Shown piece after piece: positions 4,264-28,443 of a DNA stretch of 32,000 nucleotides; positions within the stretch are counted from its first letter, which is position 1, and the number at the start of each line of letters is the position of its first letter. Under the pieces are notes generated by a model. It made no database searches and was not told the DNA's origin. It saw nothing but the letters and a program-made list of their open reading frames with translations. The stretch spans positions 570,001 to 602,000 of the forward strand of contig NZ_CP022339.1 of assembly GCF_003351905.1 (NCBI RefSeq), given 5' to 3'. A program made the translations under genes and the position numbers. This DNA comes from Candidatus Saccharimonadota bacterium. Lineage in GTDB: Bacteria; Bacteroidota; Bacteroidia; Cytophagales; Amoebophilaceae.

Positions 4264-7200
4264 TTAAGACTTTACCATTGTTATATTTAATGCCCTTTCA
4301 GCATGTAATTGCAGTTCATCAGTTATATCAACCAGTTGTAGCTGCATAGCCAATGGTAGATAAAAGTCTTGAATTAATCTTATTTTCTCTAGCTGCTTTT
4401 CGATGGCGTGACCAGCAATCGTTCTTGCATTATGTAACACATCTGCTAGCCTAATCAGTATCGCATCTTGTTTTGTATGAGCTATGATTTGTTCGATATA
4501 GGTAGCATAATCCTCTTTTTGGTTGGGTAATTCTTTTTCTAAGCGTGCTGCCGCCCATACCGTCTCTGTAATAGCAGGGCCAAATAGCGTCGTTAAGCCT
4601 GCTTCTGTAAAGGGTGTATTTTGTACCACATCATGGACTAAACCTGCAATAATTACACTGGTGTCTTCCGTTATCGTCAGTAAAATGGAGGCTACGGCCA
4701 TGGGATGTAAGTAAAAAAGTTCACCTGTTTTTCTTCTTTGCGTGGTATAATAGATTTTAATTAATTGTAGTGCATCCATTACTGCATCTACCTTAAGTCC
4801 TTTCTTCTGCTTAACCTTTTCTAGAAAATCAGCTTCTGCTTGTATACTTATTGGGTCCAATACCGTCGTTTGTGTATAGACAACAGGTGAAAGCGTAGCA
4901 AATGCCTTCGTAATTTCTTGCACGTTGACAGGTATTACGTATAAATGGGTGATTTCTGATGCAGAACAGAATCGCTCATAGTACCCGTAATGTGCATGTA
5001 CAATATGTTGATTTTCTGAATCTATTTTTTCTTCATACGCATCTAAGATTTGAATATCTGCCATTTCTGCCACCTTATAAATGGGGGCTATGGCAGGCAA
5101 TTGTGTGGCAGTGGTGATGCAAAAGCTGATTGCATTGATTTTTTGTAACTTACCTTGTAACAGTGTGAGTCGATAACCTAACTGTGTATCATCTATATAT
5201 ATATAGATATCCTTTCTTTGATCGCTATGTAGAGATTCATGTGTGCTACAGGCGTATAAACTACTGATGATTAGATTTTTAATGCTTTCTATTGCACACT
5301 GTATATAGAGGTGTTTGGTGTTGATCATTACATAGGGCGTCTCATATATATTGCTGATTGTTATTGTATCAAAACATTCGGCTAATAGTTGATCAATGCT
5401 CATCCAATTCGTAACTAAATGGAGGTTATATTTTAAATGTTGAAAGATGCTGTTAAAATATTTTTTTAACCTAAGTGTTTGATCTGCATAGGTAAGGAGT
5501 CGTTCCTCTGGTTGATCCAATCGCATGAGTTGGTGGTTCAATTGGGAGATGATCCAACTGCTTTCATAAGCCAGTGCTTCTACTTGTTGTTTATTAAAAA
5601 ATTGCCTGGCATTTTGCTCTTCTTTTTCACTAGTTAATGTTTGTATGATTGATAAGCGCTTACCTAAGGCATGCGTATGGTATAAAAAACCGCCCACCAA
5701 AATGAAGAACATAAGTAGGGTGTAGGCAATATGCAGATTCAGGTCTAAAGGGTAATCGATCAATGCAACGGTGCCGTCCATATAGTGGCGCAAGGTCCAC
5801 ACTACTATAGTACTCATGATGCAGCCAATGAGTAGCACGATCAATGGGGTAATAAAAATAGATAAGAGCAGGTTGAGTATACAAATGGTGGTATATAAGT
5901 AGGTGAATTTACTAAGCATAGCCATGCCCGTACCTACTAAAAAAAGAAAATAGACATGACTGAATGGCCATATTACTGACGCTATTTTTCGGATATAGCG
6001 TTGGGGCGAAATGAAGGGGTAAATGAAAAAAAATGTGGCCACAAAGAGGCTGGGTAAAAGCATAAAGACTTCTAGTCTGGTATGCCATATGGGATGACTG
6101 GTAAAAGTATACAAGGAACCATAACCTGTTAGAAGGATATAAAAACCAAACAGTATATAGGGTAGGTGATGCTTGGGTAAGGATAGGTAATCCCCAAGAT
6201 TAAATGGCCTAATCAAGGCATGTTTAGACAATCGCTTCCATAACGGTGGCGGTTTAACTACCGGATCTTGGGCCAACCTATTGGTGCAGTGCGGTGGGTT
6301 TGTACTTCGTTTACCCTTGAAAAACTGGATCACTAATATGCTAAGTAGGTTCACCATCATAGCTGGGAGTAGACTACACATACCTGGGTTAGCTATACAG
6401 CAGGACCAGGTTATAGTCGTTAGACCACCTGCTAGCATACCTGCTAAAACCGCGTGGGGATGTAATGCAATGCCGATTAATGAGAGTAATAAGGGTAGGC
6501 TTACCATGGTTTTAAACAAAATAATAGCCATTGCTATCAGTTGTTCTTGTGTGTATAAGGCAATAAGCGTGGCCATCATGCTTACTATTGCCTGATACAG
6601 GATCGGCTTTTTTACCCATTTGAATAGATCTGGCAGGTCGTTGGTTATTAAACGTGTGGCGGCGTGTAAATTTGCACCTGCTGTAGACAGCGTCAATGCG
6701 GCGGCACCTATCATAAACAACCCTTTTAACCCTAGATAAGCCTCAAAAGAAGTCATGACCAATGGCATTAATTTGCCTGCGTTTTTTTGTGCCAACAGCG
6801 CCACCCATAGTAAAAGCAAGTTGATGCTTAATGACAAGAAACCTGCACTATTAAAAGTCCGTTTTACTTGCGTAGCATTTTCAGCAGCTAAAATGGGTGC
6901 TACCTGAGCAGGGTAGAAAGCAGGTAGGACAAAAGCCATACCATACACCATATGATTCAGTGGAACCGCATCACGCAAACGATCCCAGCCATCTTTAATG
7001 GCTAAAGTAAAATGCGCTTGATCCCCATAGGGGTGGGTTACCATGCTTTTCCATAAAATCCAAGCGATGAGGGGGAGCAATATGCCAAAGGTCGCACAGC
7101 GTGCTACACGTACCAATGTTGGCGGGTGTATCTGGTTGGGTCCAACAGGCAACATGATCAAGAGTGCCGCGATCAGCAGGCTATAATGTGGTTGCATGGC

Positions 7201-7632
7201 AAAGTACCAACCTATAGCCACGGAAAGTAGCTTACACTGCATAGCAGCTGCTGCAGCGCTATGTAAGATACCAGATAGGGCGACCATTTTTCGAATAGGG
7301 TTGCCATAGAGCCGGCCCATTATTTCTGCTACTGATCCAGTATTAAAAAAAAGATGCAACCGATGGGCCAGCAGGTTGCCTATTATAAAATAGCTGAGCA
7401 TGCTGCCTGCCCAATATAATAAGCCATCTATATGCAACGGATTACACAACACCTCTCCTCCATAGGTTATCGCTAAGATGGCTGTTATAGTATGCGCTGC
7501 TGTAAAGTGCGTATATGGGTGGGAGGAATGTTTGGTAGCACGGATGCTAACGAATAGGTAGGCTAATAAAAAAAGAAGAAAAATAATACTGTCTAAGTCC
7601 ATTACCGGTCCTGTAATTATTGTGCTGAACAA
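4264..7632 (-). CDS. Giant polytopic protein: degenerate SSS-transporter-like domain + second TM block + histidine-kinase-like module + RelA/SpoT-type HD domain
   Basis: The ORF is 1122 aa. The N-terminal multi-TM region is paralogous to the 14889-18491 and 18788-20218 proteins (SVAEIMGRLYGNPIRKMVALSG vs SIAQTMGHVYGRYARIVTALVG). The mid region has an H-box-like ISQLNHQLMRL and a CA-like tail IVHAHYGYYE...LYVIPVNV. The C-terminus reads GELFYLHPMAVASIL...AGLVHDVVQNT...RLADVLHNARTI, matching (p)ppGpp-hydrolase HD motifs. Confidence 0.75.
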   Translation of the reverse strand: MFSTIITGPVMDLDSIIFLLFLLAYLFVSIRATKHSSHPYTHFTAAHTITAILAITYGGEVLCNPLHIDGLLYWAGSMLSYFIIGNLLAHRLHLFFNTGSVAEIMGRLYGNPIRKMVALSGILHSAAAAAMQCKLLSVAIGWYFAMQPHYSLLIAALLIMLPVGPNQIHPPTLVRVARCATFGILLPLIAWILWKSMVTHPYGDQAHFTLAIKDGWDRLRDAVPLNHMVYGMAFVLPAFYPAQVAPILAAENATQVKRTFNSAGFLSLSINLLLLWVALLAQKNAGKLMPLVMTSFEAYLGLKGLFMIGAAALTLSTAGANLHAATRLITNDLPDLFKWVKKPILYQAIVSMMATLIALYTQEQLIAMAIILFKTMVSLPLLLSLIGIALHPHAVLAGMLAGGLTTITWSCCIANPGMCSLLPAMMVNLLSILVIQFFKGKRSTNPPHCTNRLAQDPVVKPPPLWKRLSKHALIRPFNLGDYLSLPKHHLPYILFGFYILLTGYGSLYTFTSHPIWHTRLEVFMLLPSLFVATFFFIYPFISPQRYIRKIASVIWPFSHVYFLFLVGTGMAMLSKFTYLYTTICILNLLLSIFITPLIVLLIGCIMSTIVVWTLRHYMDGTVALIDYPLDLNLHIAYTLLMFFILVGGFLYHTHALGKRLSIIQTLTSEKEEQNARQFFNKQQVEALAYESSWIISQLNHQLMRLDQPEERLLTYADQTLRLKKYFNSIFQHLKYNLHLVTNWMSIDQLLAECFDTITISNIYETPYVMINTKHLYIQCAIESIKNLIISSLYACSTHESLHSDQRKDIYIYIDDTQLGYRLTLLQGKLQKINAISFCITTATQLPAIAPIYKVAEMADIQILDAYEEKIDSENQHIVHAHYGYYERFCSASEITHLYVIPVNVQEITKAFATLSPVVYTQTTVLDPISIQAEADFLEKVKQKKGLKVDAVMDALQLIKIYYTTQRRKTGELFYLHPMAVASILLTITEDTSVIIAGLVHDVVQNTPFTEAGLTTLFGPAITETVWAAARLEKELPNQKEDYATYIEQIIAHTKQDAILIRLADVLHNARTIAGHAIEKQLEKIRLIQDFYLPLAMQLQLVDITDELQLHAERALNITMVKS

Positions 7633-8339: not shown

Positions 8340-8668
8340 AGCTGCTTAATGACCTTTTTAGATATATGAGACTTTTATTGTTTATATTTCCCTTGCGATA
8401 CAAAGTGATACACATTAAATTTGCCTTGGCAAGGTAGGTAAATCTGTGGTAGAATCCAAATACTTGTATCAGCGACTGCAAGCGAGGCGCATGCCAAGCA
8501 TCGATAAAAAATATATTATTATTTAATAATCAATACTAGTTATCTTTTCAGTGGGTGCTATTGCAGGTTTGGTTTATGTTAGGTACCTATTATAGGTTAT
8601 TTTAGGCTTACATGTATTTCATGCGCTCGTATCTTACGCTTTTAATTAATGTTAAGTGATACATCTCC

Positions 8669-9250
8669 ATGCAATATAAAATAAAGCAGTTGGTATGGTT
8701 CTTTTTGATGGGCCTTATGGTATGGATGAAGGTTCATGCGGCACCTTCCTCTACTTTGAAAAAGTTGAAGAAAGGCATCTATGAAGAAAATCTTGTGGTA
8801 TACAGGATTGAATTTTGCAAACAGCCTAAGGCGGTCAAAAAAGCACCACCTATGCCATTGGTCTGTTTATTGGACCAAAGCGACCATTTGGCCCAACGTT
8901 TGGCACAACGCAAGGCAGCTTATCTAGATAGGCATAGCTTAAAAGGGTATACCATACAGCTTTATATGGGTGGCAGTAGAACCGCAGCATTAAAAGCCCA
9001 AGAGTTGGGGCGTACCTTTTCCTACCCTGCTAAGTTACATTACAGGCAACCCCATTATACCGTTCAACTTGGGTTTTTTTTAGATCGGCTAGAGGCCTAT
9101 TTGGTCTATTTGAATGTAGTAAGCAAAATAACGCATGCCATGATTCGACCTTGTATGCGCACTAGAGAGGCCTACTTAGCCGATAATGTAGGCCCTCCTA
9201 CCACTGAGGCCTCCAAAGAGATAGTAGGGGATGCTTTGCCTGTAAAATAA
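8669..9250 (+). CDS. Secreted SPOR-domain (peptidoglycan-binding) protein
   Basis: N-terminal signal-like segment (FFLMGLMVWMKVHA). The C-terminal half, YTIQLYMGGSRTAALKAQELG...YRQPHYTVQLGFFLDRLEAYLVY, fits the SPOR pattern. Confidence 0.6.
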   Translation: MQYKIKQLVWFFLMGLMVWMKVHAAPSSTLKKLKKGIYEENLVVYRIEFCKQPKAVKKAPPMPLVCLLDQSDHLAQRLAQRKAAYLDRHSLKGYTIQLYMGGSRTAALKAQELGRTFSYPAKLHYRQPHYTVQLGFFLDRLEAYLVYLNVVSKITHAMIRPCMRTREAYLADNVGPPTTEASKEIVGDALPVK

Positions 9251-9363
9251 TGATGGTAAGGATGCATTTAATGCAATCATGCACGCTATTCAATATTTTT
9301 GGTTATTTTTGATCCTATATTGGTCTGCACTTTTGCGACAGCAAAATAAATCACCCCTTTAAA

Positions 9364-10581
9364 GTGGCCGTGGTGCCCACTAATAGGGATCAATATAATA
9401 TTTATATGACAATGGTTTTTAGTATGTTTCGGTTCAGATATTTGTTTTTTATATGGTTGTCATTGGCTTCCTTTGCAGGTCTTCGTCGCAATCACCCTAC
9501 CAGTCAATCTCCCGGTAAGGTAAGCCAGACGACAGGGCGTCCTTTTAACCAGCCAGATACCCTTTCGGTAGTTCCTTGTAAGGCAAGGCCACCTATTCCA
9601 GGTATGGTCTATATTGAGGGAGGGTATATGATCATGGGTAACTTAGGTGAAGATAAACTGGGTACAGGGGGTTGTTGTGCCAAGCCTGTTACCGTTAATT
9701 CTTTTTGGATGGATGAAACACCTGTTACCAATTTGGCCTATAGAGAATACCTCTATGATTTGAAACAGCGTGGCTTGATGGAACAATATCAGGCTGCTAT
9801 GCCCAATCAGCAAGTTTTTATAGAGCACTTTAGCTACAATGACCCATTGGTAGACAATTATTTATATGCACCTGGTTTTATGTACTATCCTGTTGTGGGC
9901 GTCAGTTGGGAGCAAGCTATGAAATATTGTGCGTGGCGGACCGAGAAACTTCATGAGGCGATTAAGAAACGCAAAGGAAGTCCAGTTCCCGATCCTGATC
10001 CTGATGCGGGATCCTCGAATGGTGAAGATGAACCAAAGTTTATGGTTCGGTTGCCTACTGAAGTAGAATTTGAATATGCTGCGCGTGGTGTAGTGGGCGC
10101 ACCGGATATAAGCTATTTACAAAGTCATCAGCGCAACTACCCTTGGGATGGATCTTCTCCAAGAGGAAAAAATGGTCGGTTTTTAGCTAATTTTAAGCGC
10201 GGTAAAGGCAATTATAAGGGAATGGCTGGTGAATCTGACCATTCGGCACCAACTTCTAACGTCTATGCCTACCCTCCTAATGCAGTTGGTCTTCGCGATA
10301 TAATGGGTAATGTCTGTTGTTGGACACTTGATACCTATAGGCGCATACAAGATACAAGTGATTTAAATCCAGTTAGGCGTGATGGTTTTTTGGATCCTGC
10401 TGCGCACTATAGTGCAACCCATAAGGCTTCCCTGGTGAATGATGATGCAAAAGTCTATAAAGGCTGTTCTTGGGCAGACTGTGCCTATTTTTTACAAATA
10501 GGTACCCGCCGGTATTTGAATAAAGATTCGGCTACGGCTACCATTGGTTTCCGGTGTGTGGTTTCCAGCTTAGGGCAGTAA
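9364..10581 (+). CDS. FGE-sulfatase/SUMF1-fold protein, GldJ/GldK-like
   Basis: GMVYIEGGYMIMG, FWMDETPVTNLAYREY, YPVVGVSWEQAMKYCAWR, LPTEVEFEYAARG, GNVCCWT and FRCV are the spaced motifs of the formylglycine-generating-enzyme fold used by Bacteroidota GldJ/GldK. The track start is GTG. The ATG at 9406, followed by a hydrophobic leader, is a more likely start. Confidence 0.7.
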   Translation: MAVVPTNRDQYNIYMTMVFSMFRFRYLFFIWLSLASFAGLRRNHPTSQSPGKVSQTTGRPFNQPDTLSVVPCKARPPIPGMVYIEGGYMIMGNLGEDKLGTGGCCAKPVTVNSFWMDETPVTNLAYREYLYDLKQRGLMEQYQAAMPNQQVFIEHFSYNDPLVDNYLYAPGFMYYPVVGVSWEQAMKYCAWRTEKLHEAIKKRKGSPVPDPDPDAGSSNGEDEPKFMVRLPTEVEFEYAARGVVGAPDISYLQSHQRNYPWDGSSPRGKNGRFLANFKRGKGNYKGMAGESDHSAPTSNVYAYPPNAVGLRDIMGNVCCWTLDTYRRIQDTSDLNPVRRDGFLDPAAHYSATHKASLVNDDAKVYKGCSWADCAYFLQIGTRRYLNKDSATATIGFRCVVSSLGQ

Positions 10582-10603
10582 TAGATGCTGGGTCAGCCTA
10601 TTT

Positions 10604-11299
10604 TTAGGCTTCTACTACCGCTATGGTGGCAATGCTTACTTGGGCTACACCTGCCGCTAAAAGCGCATGGGTGCAAGCGGTCAAGGTCGCTCCTGTAGTG
10701 AGAATATCATCCACCAGCAGCAGGTGTTTGCCTGCTAGTAAACCTGCGTCTATAACTTTAAAGGCATCTTTAAGGTTGGCGATACGTTCTATTTTATTTT
10801 TGGTTGTTTGGGAGGGCGTATAACGGGTCCGTGCTATGCATGCTGTGTACAAAGGCATGTTTAGTGCAGCGGAGAGTCCTTTTGCAAAAAAATCACTCTG
10901 GTTATAGCCCCGTTCTTTGAGTCGTTTGGGGTGCAGTGGAACCGCTACAATTCCATCGATGGATGGCATCATCGGTGCCTGATGTAAGATCTGGCCATAG
11001 CGTTGCCCTAGCATCTGTCCGATTTTGGGTTGGTTTTTATACTTCATAGCAAAGAGTACTTGTTCAAGATGGCTCTTCTTTCTTAACTTGTAAAGCGAAA
11101 ATCCATAGGCTATGGTCACTTTACCTATAAAGTAGTTGGTAATAAGGTTGTCTACTAATGTATGCGCGTTGGTTTCTGGAAATGCACTCAAACAAATGGT
11201 ACAAACCCATGTTTCTCCCTGAATCAGTTTATGGTTGCATCCCACGCATAGGGGTGGAAAAAACAAATCCAATAGCCCAGCGATCAATCGTTTCATCAT
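10604..11299 (-). CDS. comF: ComF-family phosphoribosyltransferase-like protein
   Basis: N-terminal double CxxC (CVGC...CTIC), a central HP.RL.ERGYNQS motif, and the C-terminal PRT motif LLLVDDILTTGATL. Confidence 0.8.
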   Translation of the reverse strand: MMKRLIAGLLDLFFPPLCVGCNHKLIQGETWVCTICLSAFPETNAHTLVDNLITNYFIGKVTIAYGFSLYKLRKKSHLEQVLFAMKYKNQPKIGQMLGQRYGQILHQAPMMPSIDGIVAVPLHPKRLKERGYNQSDFFAKGLSAALNMPLYTACIARTRYTPSQTTKNKIERIANLKDAFKVIDAGLLAGKHLLLVDDILTTGATLTACTHALLAAGVAQVSIATIAVVEA

Positions 11300-11334
11300 A
11301 TAGAAGTATGTGTTCAGCGCATTGGTTTTTATTA

Positions 11335-11387
11335 GGCATCTGTTCCAATCACTGGTTTTTTGTCCACTTTTTTATCAAGAAAAAAGC
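11335..11387 (+). repeat. Dispersed repeat copy C, left part (interrupted by IS110)
   Basis: ggcatctgttccaatcactggttttttgtccacttttttatcaagaaaaaag matches the reverse strand of 18600-18722, with an internal deletion of about 65 nt. Homology stops exactly at 11387. Confidence 0.6.
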
Positions 11388-11397
11388 TATTATCTTA

Positions 11398-12098
11398 CTA
11401 TGCAAGTTTTTTAGTCATTTTGTACTCGTTTTTGATACTTTTGACGAAGCTTCTTTTTTGTTGTATAAGCTTATGCGCCAGCTCTAGGAGCTTCCTCATA
11501 CATGCTACGATAGCCACTTTTTTAGGCTTATATTTACCTACTAATCTATCATAGCATTCTTTTAAATATAGGAACCACTTTTTCCCTGCTAATACAGCCA
11601 TATACAGTGCATCTCGTGGTATTTTCCTTCCTCCCCTAATAAATCTTTTTCCCTGTTTTTTCCCACTATCAGCCGCATATGGTGCTATACCTACTAAAGC
11701 TGATAGTTGATTACTACTGTAGCTTCTATCACCTAATTCAGGTAAAAAACTGACTAATTTAGTGGCTAAACATTTCCCGATTCCTGGAATGGTTTCTAGT
11801 ATATTAGCCTTTTCGTCTAGATCCTTATCAGTAGTTATGGTTTTATTTAACGCTTTATCAATAATTTTTATTTCTTTTTCTAAAAAATCGATATGCCTTT
11901 CTATGCTTTCTTTATCTATATTAGTCTGGCTATGGTGTAACCGTTTCTTTTCATTGCTTAATGTAGCTACCAGCTCTTCTCTTCTTTGTTGTTGCCTTTT
12001 AAGCCGATCTGTTGTAATATAATAGCTGTAATTAGCTTTCAATCCCCTTTCCTGTCCATAGCGAGCTAGTTTAAAAGGTAGAGTAGAGCACTGGCGCG
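11398..12098 (-). CDS. IS110-family transposase, 3' exon (downstream of group II intron)
   Basis: The C-terminal block IPGIGKCLATKL...LVGIAPYAADSGKKQGKRFIRGGRKIPRDALYMAVLAG...KPKKVAIVACMRKLLE is Transposase_20-like. The frame stays open upstream of the track TTG start back to the intron 3' end (ARQCSTLPFKLARYGQERGLKANY). Confidence 0.75.
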
Positions 12099-12192
12099 GT
12101 GAAGTATAGGACCAGGTTTATCCGTGTCCATCGTTTCCGATTTCGTGCCTAAATAACCCAATCTCTCTTTCCCGTTTCCAGCACCCCCTCGT

Positions 12193-12226
12193 CGCACCGT
12201 ACGTGAGGTTTTCCCTCATACGGCGC
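12193..12226 (-). ncRNA. Group II intron domain V
   Basis: The reverse strand, GCGCCGUAUGAGGGAAAACCUCACGUACGGUGCG, folds as the canonical two-helix hairpin with an AC bulge and a GAAA-type loop. It matches the consensus ..GCCGUAU....GAAA....ACGUACGG... Confidence 0.85.
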
Positions 12227-12249
12227 ACGGATCGTCTTCTTCGTCTGCA

Positions 12250-13548
12250 TTACGTCCATCTGTATCGCACCCGATAAGCTCCTACATTGACTAATTTGTA
12301 CACTTTGTGGAGCTTCTCGTCGGGGAGTTCCTTATACCCGTTCTTCCTACTCCCTTTCTTTTTCATGATAAATCTTCTCAGACGCCTGTTTGCATGCCCT
12401 TGTACTTTCCTAAATCTCCTAGAACTGGCCGTGTGACGGTAATACTCCGTCCACCCCAGTAAGGATGCGTTTAAGTCTTTAACAATAGTTTCAACACTTT
12501 CGTGCAACCGGTTCCGATAGGTCAATTGCGTGACTTTCTTAATAATCCGCTTGATTGCATCAGGTGTAGGATACATATGGGTAACGGGTTTCTGATATCT
12601 TGGCGAGTATCCCCTTTTAAAGGCATACCCTAAGAAATTGAAACCTTCTTCGGCCGTGGTCATTCGACTCTTTTCTTCATTGATCGAAAGGCCCAAGCGT
12701 TGCAGATACCCACATAAAATACCCAAAATCTTCTCTACCGGTTTATTCGACACTATCACGAGATCGTCCGCATAGCGGACAATCTGTGCATTCCACCCAT
12801 TCCTTTCGGTCATCCGCTTGACCCATACTGTGTCTAGCAGATTCAGGTATATATTAGAAAGTAAGGGCGAAATGGGGGACCCTTGAGGGGATCCTTGTCG
12901 AGTAGCAACTTCTTCGCCTTTAAGGACTCCTGAGCGAAGCCAGGCTTGTATTAACTTTAGAACATACCTATCACTGATTCGCTTTTGAATGACTTTCATA
13001 AGCTTATCGTGTGGGATTGAGTCAAAGTATCGCTTCAAATCAATATCTAAAACTTGGGTGAGCCCGTAATTAAGCCATTTATATATTGATAGACTTGCAT
13101 GGACTGCGGATCGTTTAGGTCGAAACCCAAATGAGCATTCTTGGAAGTCTGCTTCAAAAATTGGCTCTATAACAAGACGGGTTGCAGTTTGTACTAAGCG
13201 GTCCTTAATCGTGGGCACTCCCAAGATTCTTATTCCTCCTTTCGGTTTGGGTATTTCCACGCGCTTTGTCTTATTGCTTCGGTAGCTTCCTGATTCCAGT
13301 TCTTTTTGAACTTGTCCAAGAAACGCTTCTTCCCCTTGTTCTTTGATTTGTTCTATTGTTATTCCATCTATGCCTGGTGCCCCGTGATTTGCACAAACCT
13401 GTTTCCATGAACAGACCAGTACGTCCAATCTATATATTTTGTCATGAAGGGTGTAGAAGCTGCGTTTAGGATTAGACTTAGCAGATCGATAAAGTTCTCG
13501 CTGCAGTTCTCGGACGCTTTGTGCCATGTGGTTACCTTGCGGAATCAT
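12250..13548 (-). CDS. Group II intron-encoded reverse transcriptase/maturase (no obvious En domain)
   Basis: APGIDGITIE (RT0/1), RRVEIPKPKGGIRILGVPTIKDRLVQ (RT2), FGFRPKRSAVHA (RT3), VLDIDLKRYFDSIPH (RT4), VRYADDLVIV (RT5 YADD), then FLGY and GW..YYR of the X/maturase domain. The ORF is 432 aa. Confidence 0.92.
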   Translation of the reverse strand: MIPQGNHMAQSVRELQRELYRSAKSNPKRSFYTLHDKIYRLDVLVCSWKQVCANHGAPGIDGITIEQIKEQGEEAFLGQVQKELESGSYRSNKTKRVEIPKPKGGIRILGVPTIKDRLVQTATRLVIEPIFEADFQECSFGFRPKRSAVHASLSIYKWLNYGLTQVLDIDLKRYFDSIPHDKLMKVIQKRISDRYVLKLIQAWLRSGVLKGEEVATRQGSPQGSPISPLLSNIYLNLLDTVWVKRMTERNGWNAQIVRYADDLVIVSNKPVEKILGILCGYLQRLGLSINEEKSRMTTAEEGFNFLGYAFKRGYSPRYQKPVTHMYPTPDAIKRIIKKVTQLTYRNRLHESVETIVKDLNASLLGWTEYYRHTASSRRFRKVQGHANRRLRRFIMKKKGSRKNGYKELPDEKLHKVYKLVNVGAYRVRYRWT

Positions 13549-14074
13549 GGTATCTTTCCCTGTTTTGAAAACATGACGAAACTGAAGATCCTTCGCTCCG
13601 GTAAGGTTTTGTTGTCCTTGCCATCTTCACTACTACTATCTTCCCGACTTCCTGCACAGCATCGGAACGAACTTCGACTTGCGCCTTATATCCTTCCTTA
13701 CTCTTGGAACTTAAAGACCGTGCAGGATCTCCCACGTTTCTCCTCCTTTCTTTCCTACGTGCCGCCCCTGCTACGCCGGGAGATAAGTGACGGTTATTGA
13801 CCTGTTATCTTTCCGTCACTTTACAGCTTTCGCCCACCAGACGAGAGGCTCAGCATCTCCAATTCCCAGATTTCTCTGGTAAGACCTTCACGGCGCTACA
13901 TATAGGTTCCTTGCGTACGGCCCGCAGTTTGCGTAGCTCCTTGTACAGAGCCGTCGTCGAGTGGCTTCATCTACAAAAATTACTCTTTATAGATGCACTC
14001 CTCGCTACCTGGCCAACAGGCCTATTGCCAGGGTGGGACTTGCACCCACTAGAAAGGAGGCCTTCGTGGCACGC

Positions 14075-14372
14075 CATCGTGTTTATCCGTTTTACAGTGG
14101 TCTAGAGATTTACTAAATGAACTAAAAGTATATGTATTCACTTGATGTATGTGTACATTAGCGGCATACAATTTCTCACAAATGGCTCTTTCATATCCCC
14201 CAGTTGGTTCACATACTATAATTTTAACAGCTACTTGATCTAAATAATCTATAAGTTCCTTATGGCCCTGCTCATCGTTACGAAACCTTTTATATACAGA
14301 TTTAGCCTCTTGACTATAGAAACATGCATCCAGCCATGTTTTCCCTATATCTAAACCAAGTATTCTGTTCAT
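14075..14372 (-). CDS. IS110-family transposase, 5' exon (upstream of group II intron)
   Basis: MNRILGLDIGKTWLD is the DEDD first-Asp motif (GLDIGK), followed by IVCEPTGGYE and CKTDKHD. The track ORF runs on to 14049 only because it reads into the intron. Confidence 0.75.
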
Positions 14373-14888: not shown

Positions 14889-17800
14889 TTACTTGTTTTT
14901 GTTAACTTTTCCTTTTTTTATGTTTACTGTATCCTTATCAATATCAATCTTTAGCGCCTCTTTAGCTGCATGTTCTAATGCAGTGCCTATCTCTGGACCT
15001 AAGTAAGTATGGGCTAACTTCACATCTATGTCTAAGGTTTCTTGCGCCATATGGTGCACCTCTGTTGGATGGATATAACTTGCCGCCTGGTGTAGGTCAT
15101 AGAGCCGCTCGGCTAGCTTAATAAAGAGTACAGAAAGCTGTATATGCTCTTCCTTAATCGCTTCTTTCAATCGATTTTGCACATAAAGCAAGGAAGGGTG
15201 GTCTAAGTCTTGGCGTTTGTCTATACTTATTACATTCAATACAAAGGCATAAACCCCTAAGTTATAATGTTCCTTGACATAAGAAAGTGGTAGGCAGGTA
15301 TGGCGCACCAGTTCATAGAGCAAAGCAGCATAAATTACTTTAGGGGAGTGAAAGACCCATTCTACTATTAACGTGGTAATCCCTACCGCACGTACATAAA
15401 ACAATTGACCCGAGGCATGCCGTTTAAAGCCAAAATGTTTCCGTAGTAATAAAAGCAAACCTGAAATCGTACCTAGGTCAATAGGATCGGATCGATGAGA
15501 AGACTGGCAGATATAGTCATGGAACTGCATTAAGGCCATCATGGAATCAGCTTGCTCTTTAGGGGTAACAGGGGTTTCTGAGGTTAAGCAATCTAAAGGT
15601 AGCTTAGCCGTCATCTTACTCAGCATATCCGTCACATCATTAGGCAGTACCAGTAGCATAGTGGGTTGCTGCTTGTCATCGCATATTTCCAAATGGCCAT
15701 AGTGAGCCCCAACAATACTGGATATGGTTTCTTGTTGGAGGTCTATAGATGGTGGCACTGCTTGTTTCCCTGGATCGTCTATAGCATCTATCCCATCATC
15801 ATAGATACCCTGCACTTTAGGCAATGCCTCAGGGGAAGTAGTAGCTTGACTGAATACTAGGGCAGTCGCTTGAAAAAGCATATATACAGGACAGCTGCTG
15901 TCAATAGGGTCAGCTTGCTTAAACTGCAACGTGGTGCCATGCAGTTGTACCTTTACAATGGGTACAGTATTATCCTCTAGCTTACCAATACGTAAAACAG
16001 CTTGTACCAGCAAATAGACGATTTGGTTGATATCGCATACTATATGCGGGCATGGACCCCCATTAGGATGCATTATCTTTTCTACCAGCAGTCTAGGTGG
16101 ATCAATCACCTCTTGGGATAATGCCAACTCTACCTTACGCATCAACTGATCGAAGGTAATTTGAGCGGGTTGTAGTAGGGCATGCTTTTTAGCTTTTGCT
16201 CTCCTATTAAAATAGGCCACCCAATCATAAAGCTTATTGATAATACTTTGAAAATCTTGCTTATAAAGTGGTACGTTGCTATCTAAAAAAGAGATGGATT
16301 CCTCAATTTTCCCTATTACTTGCGTTAAAATGGCGCCATAGCCTTTGGCTTGACTCATCGTAGTGGTGGGCACCATGGCTGAATCGTAAAGAGAAGCTTT
16401 GAGTTTGCGATCCTTTGCAATCTTTTCTTGATTTTTTAGGTAAAGAATTTGAGCAATATAGCGATCTTGTTTGATTTTAAAGAAAATAATAATAGCGAAT
16501 AGGAGTAGTAGACTCACTATACATAGCGGTAATAAAGAAGATAACAGCGGAAAGCAGGGACCAGTAGCAATAGGATAAATGGATATGAGTAAGGTGGTTG
16601 TTGCCACTCCTATTCCTAGATAAAGGGGTAATCCCCATAAGATGACACCACAATGGGCTAAAGACAAAGAAGCCGAAAAAATCGGTTCTGTTAGATACCA
16701 CCAGGTACCAAGCAAATTCAAAGGAAGATAAACGGCTAATCCTACTAGCCAACATAGACCAATAAACCAACTGGGAATATCCCTTATCCTTTGGAAGATA
16801 TCATAGAGAAATGGGTAGCCTAAATAACAAGCCGCTCCAAATAGTTGCAGTATAAGCCAGCAGACATGATGCGCAATAGGCGCTATAAAATAAGCCAGTA
16901 AACTAGTCACGGCTATATAAATGCCTACACATATGATCATAGTATGGTTGGGTATCAGGTTAGCCAAAGTGATTTTTCTATTGGCCCAACCATTTTTAAT
17001 CGCTTCTTTTCGTTCCGCCTGCTTGCGTGCATGCGCTTGTTGCATTTGTTTAAAATCGGGGTCTGGCCCTACCCAACCAGCCTCTTTTGGCTGTTTGAAT
17101 AAATAATGGGCCGCTAGCATAGCTAAGCCATTGGCTAACATGGAAGGGAAGGCGCCATTTATTCCCATCTCTGGGTCAAGTGGCTCAATCCATTTGTTCC
17201 AAGCTAAAATAGTTAGTGCACCTGTAGCCATACCGATTAAAGCAGTACGAGTGGTGCCCCGAAAACCGAAAATAGCCAATATAAAGGGCGCTGTTATAAC
17301 AGGGATAGCAGAATCAAGAACCCAATATGTTAATTTTAACAGATCTTGACAATAAAAAGCTAGCATCATAGCTAATAAGCCCAACACTAGCGTGGTCCAT
17401 CTAGCTATTTTAAGCTGATGCGCATCATCAATTTGTTTTTCCTTGTGTATACTTTGCAATATATCATAGCTAATCATAATAGAACAAGCATTTAAGCAAG
17501 AGTCAGCTGTAGACATCGCCATAGCGAGTAAACTAACGGCCAAAAATCCTTTAAAAAAAGGGGACATATGAGTCATAATGTACCCCCAAACCTCTTCTTT
17601 AGACAAGTGTGGTGCACCTACAAAAACAAATAGGCCAATTAGAATAATAAAAGAAGCTATAATAAGATTAAAAACAGTAGCATATGAAAAAACCTTTTGG
17701 GCCTGAATGGTACCAGAAGACATGTATACCCGCTGCATAAGTTGGGGTTGGACTATATAGGATACTAAGACAGCCAATATGAGGGAAAACAAAGCTATTA

Positions 17801-18491
17801 ACTTAGTATCAAAATGGAATAGGGTACTAAACTGAAATTTAGCTTGGTTGTGCAGTATAGGAATGATGGTTGATACTGGTTTACCTGCTTTTAGAAATAT
17901 AAACCAAGTCAAAAGAGGAATAATAATGGAAAAGGTTAGAAACTGTAGTATATCTGTAAAGGTAACGGCACGGACCCCCCCAAATGTTGAATAGAAAACA
18001 AGGAATAAGCTGGCGAAGATAGGTACTAAATAGGGGTTATCTACGTGCACACACATAGTAATGGATCGAGACATTACAGTAATCTGCATGGTAATTATAA
18101 TGATACAACGACAAGTACCAACCAAAGCCGTCACGATTCTTGCATATCTGCCATAGACATGACCCATCGTCTGTGCGATAGAGAAGTGTTGCATAAATGG
18201 ACCCATACGTAAGGCTAACTTACCAATAGTCCATAAACCAAAACAATCTAAAAATACAAGAACTATCCACCATAAGCCATATTCATAGACGCACTCTACG
18301 TCACACATTAATGTGCAGCCAGCATATAAAGTGGCCAATACCGTAGCAACTAAAGTAGCGGTAGCAAACTGTTTATTCCCTACTGCATATTCTCGAAAAG
18401 TGGTTTTTTTTCTACTAAAGTAAATGCCTACAACCAAGGTTAGCAATAAAAAAATGGCCACTATAAATAGGGAGATGTTTAAACAGAGCAT
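14889..18491 (-). CDS. Giant polytopic protein: SSS (sodium:solute symporter)-like domain + second TM block + degenerate histidine-kinase-like module + degenerate RelA/SpoT-type HD domain
   Basis: The ORF is 1200 aa. It carries the SSS hallmark FGGVRAVTFTDILQF and about 13 TM segments in the first 480 aa or so, then 6-7 further TM segments and a coiled-coil. A CA-like region follows (IVCDINQIVYLLVQAVLRIG ... IVGAHYGHLEI...TMLLVLP). The C-terminus, SGQLFYVRAVG...AALLYELVRHT...IKLAERLYDLHQ, aligns to the HD_4 motifs with HP, HD, ED and N replaced. Confidence 0.75.
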   Translation of the reverse strand: MLCLNISLFIVAIFLLLTLVVGIYFSRKKTTFREYAVGNKQFATATLVATVLATLYAGCTLMCDVECVYEYGLWWIVLVFLDCFGLWTIGKLALRMGPFMQHFSIAQTMGHVYGRYARIVTALVGTCRCIIIITMQITVMSRSITMCVHVDNPYLVPIFASLFLVFYSTFGGVRAVTFTDILQFLTFSIIIPLLTWFIFLKAGKPVSTIIPILHNQAKFQFSTLFHFDTKLIALFSLILAVLVSYIVQPQLMQRVYMSSGTIQAQKVFSYATVFNLIIASFIILIGLFVFVGAPHLSKEEVWGYIMTHMSPFFKGFLAVSLLAMAMSTADSCLNACSIMISYDILQSIHKEKQIDDAHQLKIARWTTLVLGLLAMMLAFYCQDLLKLTYWVLDSAIPVITAPFILAIFGFRGTTRTALIGMATGALTILAWNKWIEPLDPEMGINGAFPSMLANGLAMLAAHYLFKQPKEAGWVGPDPDFKQMQQAHARKQAERKEAIKNGWANRKITLANLIPNHTMIICVGIYIAVTSLLAYFIAPIAHHVCWLILQLFGAACYLGYPFLYDIFQRIRDIPSWFIGLCWLVGLAVYLPLNLLGTWWYLTEPIFSASLSLAHCGVILWGLPLYLGIGVATTTLLISIYPIATGPCFPLLSSLLPLCIVSLLLLFAIIIFFKIKQDRYIAQILYLKNQEKIAKDRKLKASLYDSAMVPTTTMSQAKGYGAILTQVIGKIEESISFLDSNVPLYKQDFQSIINKLYDWVAYFNRRAKAKKHALLQPAQITFDQLMRKVELALSQEVIDPPRLLVEKIMHPNGGPCPHIVCDINQIVYLLVQAVLRIGKLEDNTVPIVKVQLHGTTLQFKQADPIDSSCPVYMLFQATALVFSQATTSPEALPKVQGIYDDGIDAIDDPGKQAVPPSIDLQQETISSIVGAHYGHLEICDDKQQPTMLLVLPNDVTDMLSKMTAKLPLDCLTSETPVTPKEQADSMMALMQFHDYICQSSHRSDPIDLGTISGLLLLLRKHFGFKRHASGQLFYVRAVGITTLIVEWVFHSPKVIYAALLYELVRHTCLPLSYVKEHYNLGVYAFVLNVISIDKRQDLDHPSLLYVQNRLKEAIKEEHIQLSVLFIKLAERLYDLHQAASYIHPTEVHHMAQETLDIDVKLAHTYLGPEIGTALEHAAKEALKIDIDKDTVNIKKGKVNKNK

Positions 18492-18787: not shown

Positions 18788-20218
18788 TTATAGATAGTTT
18801 GGTGATTTGGCACAACTTAACTTGTATTTTCCTACTATTTTAAGTAGATAGTGGGCGGTTATCATAGTCAAGCCATTGGCTACCATAGCAATAAAAGAGC
18901 CGTCTACCCCTGTTGATGGTTCAACCCATTTGTTCCAAGCTAAAATAGTGAGTACACCTGATGCCATACCGATTAAAGCCGTATGGGATGTGCCTCGAAA
19001 GCCAAAAACAGCTAAGATAAATGGGGCAACGGTAATAGGTAGATAAAGCCCAAGATTTAATTTGAGCAAATCCAACAAATTGGTATAGTAAAAGGTTAAT
19101 ACCATAGCAAATAGCCCTATAAAAATGGACGCAATTCTTGCTAACTCGAGCTGATAAGGATAGGTTTTTGTACTACGTATAGATGCCAGTATATCATGAC
19201 TCACTGCAATAGCGCCTGAGTGTAAACAGGAGTCAGCAGTAGACATAGACATAGCTAGTAAACTAACAGAAAGAAACCCTTTAAGCACAGGTGGAATGTC
19301 CGTCATGATATAGTCCCAAACCTTGACTACTGAAACCTCTGGTGTACCTACAAAAATAAGTAATCCAATCAAGCATATAACCATATTGATGCATATCCCA
19401 AAAAAACCAGCATACCGGAAAACATTCCTAGCCTGTGTGGGGCCAGAAGACATATACACCCTATGCACAATAGGCGCGTCTATATAAGATGCAAGGATAG
19501 ATAAAGCCAGCGCAACCATGGCCACTAGATTCATATCGTAATGGAATATGGTACTGAGTTGAAATGTATCGTGTTCCTGTAAAAGTGGAAAAATTTCTAA
19601 AAATGGTTTGCCCAACTTCATAAATATAAACCAAGAAAAAAAAGGTAGAATAACAGCAAAAGTCATAAATTGTACTACATCGGTAAATACAACTGTACGA
19701 ATACCTCCAAAAGAGGAATAGAAAATCAGGGCTAAAGTAGAACAGACCGCAATGAACTGAGGATCAACTGTATGTATGCATATGCGAATCGATGACGCCA
19801 TTACATGCACTTGCATCGCAACCATTGTAACGGAAGAACCGATACTGCAAAGCGCCACAATAACCCTGGGGCACTTGCCATAGACGCTACCTATCGTTTC
19901 TGCCATAGAAAGATTTTGCATAAATGACCCCATACGTAGTGCCAACCCACTCACCACCCATAAGCCTAAGTCGCCTAAAATAACTATAATCATCCAATAA
20001 AGCCCAAGTGTATGAATCTGTTCTACATTACGGGCCAACCCACTTCCACTATAAGCAGTAGCCAATATGGTGGCTACCAAGGTAGCGGTAGCAAATTGTT
20101 TGTTCCCTATCGCATATTCTCGAAAGGTGGTTTTTTTTCTACTAAAGTGAATACCTACACCCAAGGTCAGTAATAAAAAAGCGGACAGTATACATACCGA
20201 GACATCAAAAGAGATCAT
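18788..20218 (-). CDS. SSS-like membrane protein, truncated tandem paralog of the 14889-18491 N-terminal domain
   Basis: The 476-aa ORF is collinear with residues 1 to about 470 of the 1200-aa protein (FSRKKTTFREYAIGNKQFATATLVAT, FGGIRTVVFTDVVQF, LIGMASGVLTILAWNKWVEP). It ends where the paralog continues. Confidence 0.75.
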   Translation of the reverse strand: MISFDVSVCILSAFLLLTLGVGIHFSRKKTTFREYAIGNKQFATATLVATILATAYSGSGLARNVEQIHTLGLYWMIIVILGDLGLWVVSGLALRMGSFMQNLSMAETIGSVYGKCPRVIVALCSIGSSVTMVAMQVHVMASSIRICIHTVDPQFIAVCSTLALIFYSSFGGIRTVVFTDVVQFMTFAVILPFFSWFIFMKLGKPFLEIFPLLQEHDTFQLSTIFHYDMNLVAMVALALSILASYIDAPIVHRVYMSSGPTQARNVFRYAGFFGICINMVICLIGLLIFVGTPEVSVVKVWDYIMTDIPPVLKGFLSVSLLAMSMSTADSCLHSGAIAVSHDILASIRSTKTYPYQLELARIASIFIGLFAMVLTFYYTNLLDLLKLNLGLYLPITVAPFILAVFGFRGTSHTALIGMASGVLTILAWNKWVEPSTGVDGSFIAMVANGLTMITAHYLLKIVGKYKLSCAKSPNYL

Positions 20219-27897: not shown

Positions 27898-28443
27898 AGG
27901 TGGTCTATAGGGGCTGATGTCTCAACAGGTATCAGGGAAAAAATAATACGATATGCTAATTTGTTAGCTATAAGTTTATAAAACTTTTACTGGGTACAAA
28001 ATTAGCGCATAAAAAATAAAAAGAAGGTTAATGGGTCAACTATTTTACTAATATATAGACACTATGTGTATTTTTTGACTTTCATAGTCAATTATATAGT
28101 TTTTTATTATCTTCTATTTGCTTATATCTTTTTGAGCAAGTAGTATTACCGTTGACTTGTGAAGATGTTCCGTTTATATGGAAAGATATAACCTTAAGCA
28201 ATATACATAGACCACTCTTAAGTAAGTATTTTGATGTTTGAGCAGGGGTGTTTGGAATTGTATTTGATTTTGCTTACTATTCAAAATCGGTTTAATAGAA
28301 TGTATTGGTTCCATACGTCTAGTTTTTTCCTTATCTAGGGCTCAAGCAGATGGCGCAATAGGCCTATTGATGAGGGTATGTACATTTTGATGCAATACTG
28401 TTTAAGTGGTGATAAGCACCATAGGTTTAACCATCTTAATATT

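Follow-up and report, generated by a model that had tools for sequence, protein, structure and literature searches.

A multi-copy symporter-pseudo-kinase-HD protein family of Amoebophilaceae-type symbionts and a Cardinium member with a replaced hydrolase residue set

The window analysed here (a DNA stretch of 32,000 nucleotides) contains a complete gene on the minus strand (14889..18491; ATG start, 1200 codons plus stop), whose product consists of a 13-TM sodium:solute symporter (SSS) domain, a block of six more TM helices, a pseudo-DHp+CA kinase-like module and a RelA/SpoT-type HD domain (HD_4), in this order. It is a class C member of an uncharacterised and much multiplied family (SSS-6TM-pseudoHK-HD), other members of which keep the hydrolase catalytic residues. 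It seems rather likely from the sequence that the protein imports a host metabolite, that its non-catalytic tail serves in regulation or dimerisation, and that it descends from a transporter-linked (p)ppGpp hydrolase. The family has already been noted in passing, as expansions; the division into three classes (A, B and C) and the anatomy of the dead tail are set out here. The single 1200-aa ORF with four parts, as given in a preliminary description of the locus, was confirmed by the ORF list and by a full-length match of 100% identity to P0001 (NCBI; Cardinium endosymbiont of Sogatella furcifera), and the homologs are full-length and collinear. All AF2 models are of monomers; the full-length one has a pLDDT of 80.8 and a pTM of 0.69.

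The SSS domain (aa 1-470; 17082..18491, minus strand) has the LeuT fold and 13 TM helices. Pfam SSF (PF00474) matches aa 35-424 with the whole model covered (62.5 bits, cut-off 22.8), and the NCBIfam models sss, PutP and PanF are also matched, the sss superfamily model with E=1.5e-20, below its own cut-off. Foldseek search with the full-length AF2 model retrieved the sialic-acid symporter SiaT (5nva; E=1.6e-12, target-normalised TM-score 0.85, rmsd of the superposition 3.4 over 488 columns), as well as CHT1, SGLT and NIS. With an AF2 pLDDT of about 90 across aa 40-470, the SSS-type domain of about 13 TM helices, within which the segment FGGVRAVTFTDILQF is located (aa ~169-183), was recognised correctly from the start. 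In a 29-sequence alignment (class B excluded), residues M326, S327 and D330 of the MSTADS motif are invariant, while T328, A329 and S331 are conserved in at least 90%. The stretch A-M-S327-T328-A-D-S, invariant or nearly so in classes A and C, was fitted by eye to AIMST of PutP, in which S340/T341 on TM9 form the Na2-site Ser/Thr pair. As the SSS core including MSTADS is invariant or nearly so, the product is probably active as a transporter.

The SSS domain is followed by a linker (aa 471-515; 16947..17081, minus strand) with a long helix in the AF2 secondary structure (478-503), which separates TM13 from the second TM block and is presumably cytoplasmic and amphipathic. Pfam has no match of any kind in aa 471-775, STAC and PAS included. 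The second membrane block (aa 516-675; 16467..16946, minus strand), identified by hydropathy scan and AF2, was expected to have six or seven helices; the block is present, with six helices in the AF2 model (516-536, 543-569, 574-599, 603-620, 623-643, and 647-~672) and not seven. The sixth helix is unbroken from 647 to 705 and enters the DHp-like helix. By the model, the product spans the inner membrane with 19 TM helices (13+6), and the helix count, combined with a PutP-like N-out topology, would place the tail after the 19th helix in the cytoplasm.

The kinase-like module is formed by a DHp-like helical region (aa 676-775; 16167..16466, minus strand) and a CA-like (Bergerat-fold) pseudo-ATPase (aa 776-961; 15609..16166, minus strand). 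Pfam HisKA and HATPase_c yield nothing at E<=1 in the product, but the proposal of a kinase-like region is upheld by a family profile of aa 676-1010, which matches the solved structures of ThkA (3a0r, E=1.2e-7) and ZraS (9jfj, E=0.0026), and by Foldseek search with the AF2 model of the region (223 matches at E<=1e-3, E down to 1.2e-8), where the best 50 matches are all DHp-CA kinase fragments, including those of ZraS, RetS, CckA, HK853, CpxA, and DivL. The CA-like domain is modelled with a pLDDT of about 90, and its alpha/beta elements follow each other as in kinase CA domains; the AF2 confidence is modest for aa 701-770 (pLDDT 40-70, with aa 701-716 below 50). Two kinase landmarks had been suggested in the preliminary description. 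The first, QIVYLLVQAVLRIG, is indeed the N-box helix of the CA-like domain; the second, 'AHYG...VLP', was read as a G-lid, but aligns with the kinase 'HGG...lP' strands downstream of the G2 box and not with the ATP lid.

Both the lack of the H-box His and that of DxGxG, noticed earlier, were reproduced by the motif census and the 3a0r alignment. The H-box His of 3a0r is aligned with Thr/loop in the family profile, and no conserved His is found at this position in class A or C; in class C, the sole column with at least 50% His is that of KKHALL (70%), at the DHp/CA boundary. According to the motif census, the D.G.G / G.G.G motif is absent in 158 of 160 family members, and Asn occurs in no family member at the Mg-ATP Asn position, which is occupied mostly by R (also H and Y) in class C, mostly by Y in class A, and by S or A in class B. 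Judged by these residues, the kinase-like module is dead in classes A, B and C, and the DHp+CA fold of the product is predicted to be unable to bind ATP or accept phosphate.

The C-terminal pseudo-hydrolase (RelA/SpoT-type HD, HD_4; aa 1006-1193; 14913..15476, minus strand) had been described as RelA/SpoT-like, in agreement with the Pfam HD_4 match at aa 1019-1161 (33.9 bits, cut-off 27.2) and with phmmer matches to solved SpoT (7qpr, E=1.3e-5), Rel (6yxa, 8acu, 5xnx), and, weakly, Mesh1. In the AF2 model the domain is made up of nine helices (pLDDT 75-90); the 50 matches listed for the full-length model by Foldseek are transporters and kinases, with no RSH structure among the matches listed. 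The domain is collinear with class A members, in which HD_4 scores 91-99 bits. The replacements reported earlier (HP→RA, HD→YE, ED→RH, and ADRLHN→AERLYD) are exact in comparison with the intact family members, the catalytic pattern being HRAYERHERYD versus intact RHPHDEDDRHN. The metal ligands are changed (H→R, H→Y, D→E with D, E or G among paralogs, and D→E), as are the nucleotide-contact positions (Arg of RxSGEP to His; HNxRT to YDL(R/H)x). In class C generally, nine of the 11 scored RSH-hydrolase positions are always replaced, including the RxSGEP Arg, catalytic ED and HN; the tenth (Asp of HD) is Glu in this protein and Asp in some paralogs only, and the Arg inside ADRLHN is the only one retained. 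The general class C pattern is HRAY[DEG]R[HRY]ERYD, with nearly invariant replacement residues. From this residue content, the HD domain is predicted to be incapable of binding the catalytic metal and of canonical alarmone hydrolysis. Coupling of solute sensing to alarmone signalling, once proposed for this protein, is implausible as a canonical mechanism because the RSH-hydrolase residues are replaced in class C; such a role fits the class A paralogs, where the hydrolase residues are all kept.

The family is nearly confined to reduced-genome Amoebophilaceae-type symbionts (Cardinium, Amoebophilus, and related MAGs), and has many copies per genome. The product aligns with 96-100% coverage to more than 100 proteins of 1084-1245 aa, and a search with the kinase-like module among 1.84 billion representatives found only 248 proteins at E<=1e-10, the full-length ones all sharing the same four-module architecture. 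In databases they are labelled 'sodium:solute symporter family', 'HD domain-containing', or 'bifunctional (p)ppGpp synthase/hydrolase'. The architecture, which the preliminary description did not recognise as known, is not a one-off: it belongs to a multi-copy Amoebophilaceae family with a second member in the window. In class A the hydrolase motifs are all intact, and there are several copies in Cardinium and Amoebophilus; this class is present alongside class C in Cardinium strains and A. asiaticus 5a2. Class B is single-copy, with the metal ligands kept and ED replaced by QN. The second family member in the window belongs to this class (4264..7602, minus strand; about 1112 aa; ATG at 7602, ORF open from TTG at 7632), with the same architecture as the class C product, the HD pattern RHPHDQNDVHN, a Pfam HD_4 score of 61 bits, and no Pfam SSF match. 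BLASTP aligns the two proteins (E=9e-17) over the N-terminal 584 aa and the region from AHYG to HD, and the orthologs of the class B protein are single-copy in Cardinium strains (P0121-P0129). Class C, with its dead HD, is an expanded monophyletic group, forming one long-branch clade in a midpoint-rooted neighbour-joining tree, where its nearest neighbours have intact motifs. This derived position of class C in the tree suggests that the intact hydrolase set is the ancestral state.

The whole tail, uninterrupted over ~520 aa, is kept in 83 full-length class C proteins of Cardinium, which come from many strains. Mean pairwise identity among Cardinium class C proteins is highest for the pseudo-HD (67%), followed by the SSS domain (56%) and the pseudo-CA (42%), and lowest for the second TM block (36%). 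Since the HD is the most conserved class C segment, we infer that it is retained for a function, and such a conserved dead pocket would be expected from new ligand binding as much as from a purely structural role. By the tree, class C arose once; it lost the catalytic residues, fixed new ones (R, Y, R, E-R-x-Y-D) at the former pocket positions, and then multiplied. Under the importer reading, its ancestor would be a transporter-linked (p)ppGpp hydrolase. The product would still be a Na+-coupled importer of a predicted host metabolite, with paralogs presumably differing in substrate, while the dead kinase-hydrolase tail would act as a dimerisation or regulatory module, coupling the transporter state to an output that involves neither phosphotransfer nor alarmone hydrolysis. 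Dimerisation via the DHp-like helices would follow solely from the kinase fold. In class A, the transporter state would most likely control the (p)ppGpp hydrolase directly, without a response regulator.

Several other explanations were considered. First, the importer could be gated by alarmones, with the dead HD binding (p)ppGpp or a related nucleotide uncleaved and the kinase-like module relaying this state to the symporter. The former active site holds nearly invariant R/Y/R/E/Y/D and not random residues, and no other segment of the protein is as well conserved as this domain; Arg and Tyr, which occupy the former metal site, are typical phosphate- and base-binding residues. A long Rel[HS] is reported to be encoded by Amoebophilus, to which Cardinium is closely related (PMC3153485). 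Nevertheless, such gating is unlikely, as the nucleotide-contact residues of RSH proteins are changed too (the RxSGEP Arg and HNxRT, see above), which makes canonical nucleotide binding improbable. Second, class C proteins could heterodimerise with those of class A or B through the DHp-like bundle and tune the active hydrolases, similarly to the action of RetS on GacS. The DHp+CA module is common to all classes, the classes coexist in single genomes (here, with 7 kb between the class B and class C genes), and RetS and DivL are among the best structural matches; however, the DHp-like region is only 15-18% identical between classes, which argues against a shared dimer interface and makes this partner role quite doubtful.

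Third, the symporter alone might matter, the kinase and HD parts being functionless, decaying remnants. Truncated SSS-only copies do exist: the upstream neighbour of the gene (18788..20218, minus strand; 476 aa, Pfam SSF 37.6 bits) is a truncated class C paralog that best matches aa 1-462 of full-length class C P0017 (71%) and stops just past TM13, and an independent copy of this kind is found in L081. Databases also contain numerous family proteins that are shorter or partial, and Cardinium cTPut is rich in fragments (PMC12039267). Yet the retention of the ~520-aa tail by the 83 full-length copies despite the strong deletion bias of these genomes, together with an HD part better conserved than the transporter and nearly invariant substituted pocket residues, renders this explanation very improbable. 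Finally, that the HD is still an enzyme, working by metal-independent chemistry or on another substrate, is hardly credible: although the remodelled pocket is conserved, both catalytic acids and four metal ligands are lost (three where paralogs keep the HD Asp), and to our knowledge no HD-superfamily enzyme works without a His/Asp metal site. Some HD_4 relatives are promiscuous: Mesh1 cleaves NADPH, and a bacterial small alarmone hydrolase is reported to be metabolically promiscuous (PMC9765508).

Among known systems, the SLC5/STAC kinases (CbrA, CrbS/MxtR, and RpuS) likewise combine an N-terminal 13-TM SSS domain and DHp+CA in one polypeptide. Besides STAC and PAS, they have a His that accepts the phosphate, a functional ATP site, and their own cognate response regulator. 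In the Cardinium protein, STAC-PAS is replaced by six additional TM helices, the DHp+CA is dead, and an RSH-type HD forms the C-terminus. As had been stated earlier, the window encodes no response regulator: no Pfam receiver match with E<=0.001 was found in any window ORF of at least 100 aa. CbrA is a 'transceptor', active in both histidine transport and signalling (PMC7096432, PMC7918813, PMC13022988), and a 2021 review of SSS fusions does not mention an RSH-type HD domain (PMC7918813).

The C-terminal HD is homologous to the Mesh1/SAH/'rickSpo' group (Pfam HD_4; sequence match to solved SpoT and Rel). The small alarmone hydrolases are soluble, small, single-domain proteins with the H...HD...ED...D...HN set; here, in contrast, the domain forms the end of a protein with 19 TM helices, and in class C that whole set is replaced. 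E. coli RelA (RelA[hS] in the notation of PMC3153485), whose HD domain has lost catalysis, provides a precedent for a catalytically dead RSH HD retained as a structural or regulatory domain. In RelA the dead HD lies beside an active synthetase in a ribosome-bound soluble protein, while its partners here are a transporter and a pseudo-kinase, with no synthetase domain. The non-canonical kinases RetS and DivL share the DHp-CA fold with this protein and act without normal autophosphorylation. Both retain recognisable HisKA/HATPase_c signatures, unlike the kinase-like module described here, which has no Pfam kinase match. The rickettsial SLC5sbd proteins are SSS transporters, some of them fused to a BaeS-like kinase (SLC5sbd+HK); they have proliferated in obligate intracellular bacteria and have reportedly reached Amoebophilus and Cardinium through lateral transfer (PMC5615194). 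As compared by description, they differ in that no HD fusion is described for them. Rickettsial mobile elements carry SpoT-hydrolase and kinase genes together (PMC4316617).

The published accounts of 'symporter' and 'spoT' expansions in the accessible literature were found to contain no dissection or test of the architecture. Atkinson et al. (2011) counted 15 RSHs in Amoebophilus, composed of Rel[HS] and a 'rickSpo[H] expansion' that is mentioned in passing (PMC3153485); these rickSpo[H] RSHs are most likely class A members of the family. Homologs described as 'spoT ... sodium glucose cotransporter' were noted elsewhere (PMC6232779). The published expression data do not tell classes A, B and C apart; the family is noted as 12 'putative symporters' in one report (PMC5698495) and as 19 'putative symporters' in A. 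asiaticus, the latter being regulated according to the life-cycle stage (PMC8831229).

The target gene (14889-18491, minus strand) is one uninterrupted ORF of 1200 codons in the ORF listing of the window, and an annotated protein from the Cardinium endosymbiont of Sogatella furcifera (P0001) matches its product with 100% identity, so that the window derives from this reduced Bacteroidota symbiont. Residues 35-424 match the Pfam sodium:solute symporter (SSS) model SSF over its whole length (62.5 bits, cut-off 22.8), and the NCBIfam models sss, PutP and PanF likewise match this part. The best solved-structure match found by Foldseek for a full-length AlphaFold2 (AF2) model (input of 50 homologs; mean pLDDT 80.8, pTM 0.69) was the sialic-acid symporter SiaT (5nva; E = 1.6e-12, TM-score 0.85 on the target), with CHT1, SGLT1/2 and NIS as further best matches. 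The symporter part is followed by a linker helix (aa 478-503) and, by hydropathy and AF2, by six more TM helices (aa 516-672), the last of which continues unbroken to residue 705 in the AF2 model; the preliminary description had allowed for six or seven helices, and the seventh has to be dropped. PutP has its N-terminus outside, and, if the same holds here, 13 plus 6 helices would place the rest of the protein in the cytoplasm.

The middle region of the protein has no match among Pfam and NCBIfam kinase models, and its kinship with histidine kinases was detected solely by a family profile searched against PDB sequences and by fold search. The profile, built from 30 sequences (aa 676-1010), matches solved ThkA (3a0r, E = 1.2e-7) from the DHp domain through the N-box, as well as solved ZraS (9jfj, E = 0.0026), the latter match pairing the family-invariant AHYG...VLP with the kinase HGG...lP. 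A separate AF2 model of this region (pLDDT about 90 in the alpha/beta part) yielded 223 Foldseek matches at E<=1e-3, the best 50 of which were all DHp-CA kinase fragments (ZraS, RetS, CckA, HK853, CusS, CpxA, DivL). The kinase-type spacing that had been noticed by eye is therefore real, but AHYG, then taken for the G-lid, belongs to the post-G2 strand region and not to the ATP lid. The H-box His and DxGxG had been reported as lacking, and they are: in the profile alignment the His of the solved kinase stands opposite a Thr or a loop, and a motif census of the family revealed no conserved His in the DHp-like helices, never an Asn at the Mg-ATP Asn position, and neither D.G.G nor G.G.G in 158 of 160 members. 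Judged by these residues, the module is catalytically dead and phosphotransfer is excluded.

The C-terminal part (aa 1019-1161) matches Pfam HD_4 with 33.9 bits (cut-off 27.2), and the last 200 residues alone match solved SpoT (7qpr, E = 1.3e-5) and Rel (8acu, 6yxa, 5xnx), with Mesh1 as a weak match, so that the domain falls within the RelA/SpoT-homolog (RSH) hydrolases. The proposed four-part anatomy was thus borne out by Pfam, AF2, Foldseek and profile searches. Alignment to relatives with intact motifs recovered exactly the replacements proposed earlier (HP->RA, HD->YE, ED->RH and ADRLHN->AERLYD): SGEPFYLHP of the relatives is SGQLFYVRA in the target, LLHDxVED is LLYELVRH, and KLADRLHNM is KLAERLYDL. 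With these residues gone, alarmone hydrolysis by the canonical mechanism is, on the sequence, out for the target. The transceptor-like layout suggested in the preliminary description stands, while the alarmone-type signalling attributed to the target protein itself is unlikely by the canonical mechanism, as the catalytic residues are replaced.

The target belongs to a large family with the same four-module layout throughout. A search of 1.84 billion representative proteins with the kinase-like module gave 347 matches at E<=1e-3, 248 at E<=1e-10 and 120 at E<=1e-30; all full-length matches are 1084-1245 aa long and carry the module at approximately residues 670-990, the remaining ones being fragments. 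The organisms named among the matches are Cardinium strains, Candidatus Amoebophilus asiaticus 5a2 (Aasi_0355, Aasi_0939, Aasi_1009 and others), Amoebophilaceae and unclassified Bacteroidota MAGs, and one 'Roseivirga sp.' MAG. A scan of genome contigs with the back-translated universal RSH motifs ADR[LM]HNMR and [AT]LLHD[TVL]VED retrieved generic Rel/SpoT genes of many phyla, the sole family member being on L001, an 899-kb Amoebophilaceae MAG chromosome.

In 160 full-length proteins we scored eleven positions of RSH hydrolases (R, H, P, H, D, E, D, D, R, H, N), and the proteins fell mostly into three classes. Class A (RHPHDEDDRHN; 42/160) is fully intact, and the positions are also intact in 93 of 104 further sequences. 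Class B (RHPHD[QK]ND[VA]HN; 12/160), found in one copy per Cardinium genome, keeps the metal ligands and has lost the catalytic ED. Class C (HRAY[DEG]R[HRY]ERYD; about 90/160) includes the target, and about 14 further sequences are degenerate independently. In a neighbour-joining tree class C forms a single clade on a long branch (0.46), its nearest neighbours having intact motifs, which points to catalysis having been lost once, before the clade expanded. Intact and dead HD versions coexist in single genomes: a Cardinium strain with a 1,193,042-bp contig encodes at least 14 class C and at least nine class A proteins, and all three classes are present in the Cardinium strain of Nabis limbatus. 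The catalytic motifs of the kinase-like module are missing in classes A, B and C alike, so that the module looks, from sequence, like a scaffold or transmission element older than the class split.

Gene content and chromosome sizes of the records bearing family genes indicate that the family is apparently restricted to host-associated relatives of Amoebophilus with reduced genomes. The chromosome of the 'Roseivirga sp.' MAG (L084, CP136537.1) measures 1.446 Mb and bears a class A gene along with DcuAB, Vut_1 and toxin-antitoxin genes; so small a size speaks for an organism associated with a host, not for a free-living Roseivirga of the usual kind, and the label may be loose. Other family contigs carry ATP/ADP translocase, ankyrin, F-box and LRR genes, while the genes of one contig (L083) give no clue to lifestyle. 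Class A was considered as a 'free-living' form of the family and rejected, since it occurs on contigs with ATP/ADP translocase, ankyrin and F-box proteins or on chromosomes of 0.9-1.45 Mb, and since named members come from Cardinium and A. asiaticus. A 206-kb metagenomic contig (L082) carries two class A genes 7 kb apart (1-2823 and 10001-13342; 1115 and 1113 aa), a large ankyrin protein, an F-box/LRR protein and a transposase; the pair points to local duplication in an Amoebophilus-like symbiont.

Conservation was compared between segments as mean pairwise protein identity among 83 full-length Cardinium class C proteins; this measure replaced dN/dS per domain because the closest homolog of the target is just 74% identical in protein and synonymous sites are expected to be saturated. 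The pseudo-HD domain was the most conserved segment (67%), followed by the SSS (56%), DHp-like (50%) and pseudo-CA (42%) segments and the six-helix block (36%). The class C replacement residues are nearly invariant (first His to R, second His to Y, D-R-x-H-N to E-R-x-Y-D), and the positions of the old Asp78 and Asp82 are variable (D/E/G and H/R/Y). Endosymbiont genomes in general shed unused DNA fast; together with this pattern, it means, as far as sequences can tell, that selection maintains the pseudo-HD domain for a role other than catalysis. The SSS core, including MSTADS, which may correspond to the Na2-site Ser/Thr of PutP, is invariant or nearly so in alignments of classes A and C, and the SSS half of the target probably still imports a host metabolite.

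The class C tail probably acts as a regulatory and assembly module. The unbroken helix that joins the last TM segment to the DHp-like region in the model suggests that a conformational change could pass from the membrane part to the tail or in reverse, as in sensor kinases, and the kinase fold suggests that the protein may be dimeric. Class A proteins are most naturally read as (p)ppGpp hydrolases under transporter control, which would not need a response regulator. In a joint circuit connecting nutrient supply with growth control, symporter flux in class A would pass along the six-helix block and then the dead kinase scaffold and so turn a (p)ppGpp hydrolase at the membrane directly on or off with no phosphorelay, and the class B (4264-7602) and class C (target) proteins, as catalytically dead derivatives, would be non-hydrolysing nucleotide sensors or heterodimeric modulators of active members. 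We regard this circuit as unlikely in its entirety; if true, an obligate intracellular symbiont would possess a bank of 10-20 host-metabolite sensors converging on the alarmone level.

As for the class C tail alone, it could sense a nucleotide without hydrolysis in a pocket remodelled with Arg and Tyr; the nucleotide-contact residues are changed too, however, and there is a low probability of such a role. The tail could also allow class C proteins to modulate class A or B partners as heterodimers, after the RetS model, although DHp identity between the classes is just 15-18%, and we hold this to be rather improbable. The conservation data argue against a functionless remnant, which is very unlikely, and a metal-independent new chemistry of the HD domain is the most far-fetched proposal. 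The keeping of a dead RSH hydrolase domain has a precedent in E. coli RelA.

The closest characterized systems are the SLC5/STAC sensor kinases CbrA, CrbS/MxtR and RpuS (PMC7096432, PMC5715377, PMC9100948, PMC7918813), which share with the target the combination of SSS and DHp-CA. Unlike the target, they contain STAC and PAS domains and live catalytic motifs and work with a response regulator, and none of them has an HD output, nor is one mentioned in a 2021 review of SSS proteins (PMC7918813). No response-regulator receiver domain was found in window ORFs of at least 100 aa, in line with the preliminary description.

The fusion and its expansion are already in print, in passing only. The RSH count of Atkinson et al. 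(2011) for Amoebophilus was 15, a Rel[HS] and a 'rickSpo[H] expansion', in a text where the words 'symporter' and 'transmembrane' are both absent (PMC3153485); Brown et al. (2018) gave Amoebophilus '18 homologs of spoT ... sodium glucose cotransporter' and the Cardinium strains 2-7 (PMC6232779); according to Driscoll et al. (2017), SLC5sbd and SLC5sbd+HK proteins of rickettsiae are shared with Amoebophilus and Cardinium through lateral transfer (PMC5615194); and a 2025 paper on mite symbionts tallied fragments with SSS/HD domains as possible debris of mobile elements (PMC12039267). A search of the literature on SSS+HD+ppGpp fusions came up empty, and we found neither the dead kinase module nor the three HD states nor any function described. 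Among gene expansions in Cardinium and Amoebophilus, the symporter set that includes the target family ranks with the largest; published transcriptomes show expression of all these 'putative symporters', two of which are among the top-ranked Cardinium transcripts, and regulation by life-cycle stage in Amoebophilus (PMC5698495, PMC8831229).

The target is thus a fusion of a transporter-sensor with an RSH pseudo-hydrolase, in an annotated but uncharacterized family whose genes have so far been handled merely as 'putative symporters'. Our analysis adds the dead histidine-kinase scaffold and the SpoT-type HD domain in every full-length member, and the intact, half-dead (ED->QN) and fully dead HD versions within single genomes, which side by side allow clear predictions. 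Class A proteins may represent a new kind of alarmone hydrolase, one coupled to a transporter, and class C is a natural, strongly conserved pseudo-enzyme series that raises the question why a dead RSH hydrolase domain is retained. The family lengthens the short list of bacterial 'transceptors' past the CbrA/CrbS type, and it is prominent in important symbionts, Cardinium and Amoebophilus, known for manipulation of arthropod reproduction and for life inside amoebae.

A second family member, of class B, is located at 4264-7602 (minus strand; ORF open from TTG at 7632). It has the architecture of the target, with an SSS half too degenerate for a Pfam SSF match and a membrane half similar to that of the target (BLASTP E = 9e-17); its HD domain (HD_4, 61 bits) retains all metal ligands and has QN in place of the catalytic ED. 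Cardinium strains have this gene in one copy, which is truncated in two strains (database proteins P0130 and P0131). Directly upstream of the target, an SSS-only gene (18788-20218, minus strand; 476 aa) encodes a product 71% identical to another database protein, P0017, over aa 1-460. The unrelated symbiont contig L081 carries an SSS-only copy as well (8475-9917, plus strand; 480 aa), which matches the N-terminal part of the class A gene downstream of it at 89% identity, and both genes stop at one shared domain boundary, just past TM13. The upstream gene was rejected as a conserved partner of the target, being a truncated class C copy with an independent partial duplicate as its L081 counterpart.

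Between the class B gene and the target lies a complete group II intron (12078-14051, minus strand), in which an RT/maturase ORF (12250-13548) is enclosed by the Rfam domains D1-D4 (13911-14051) and V/VI (12078-12228). It appears to be inserted in an IS110-type transposase gene, flanked by the C-terminal part of a Transposase_20 protein (11398-12042) and by a 107-aa ORF (14049-14372) taken by eye for the putative transposase N-terminus; an IS110-family Transposase_20 fragment of 146 aa is found at 439-879 (minus strand). A 252-aa ORF at 30977-31735 (minus strand) matches Pfam Mito_carr (37.9 bits), a eukaryote-type mitochondrial carrier in a bacterial symbiont; it adjoins a TLC ATP/ADP translocase gene (29319-30851, 462 bits), with an ankyrin-repeat protein encoded nearby (28378-29307). 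Finally, a protein with an FGE-sulfatase/SUMF1-like domain (133 bits) is encoded at 9364-10581 (plus strand) in this strongly reduced genome.
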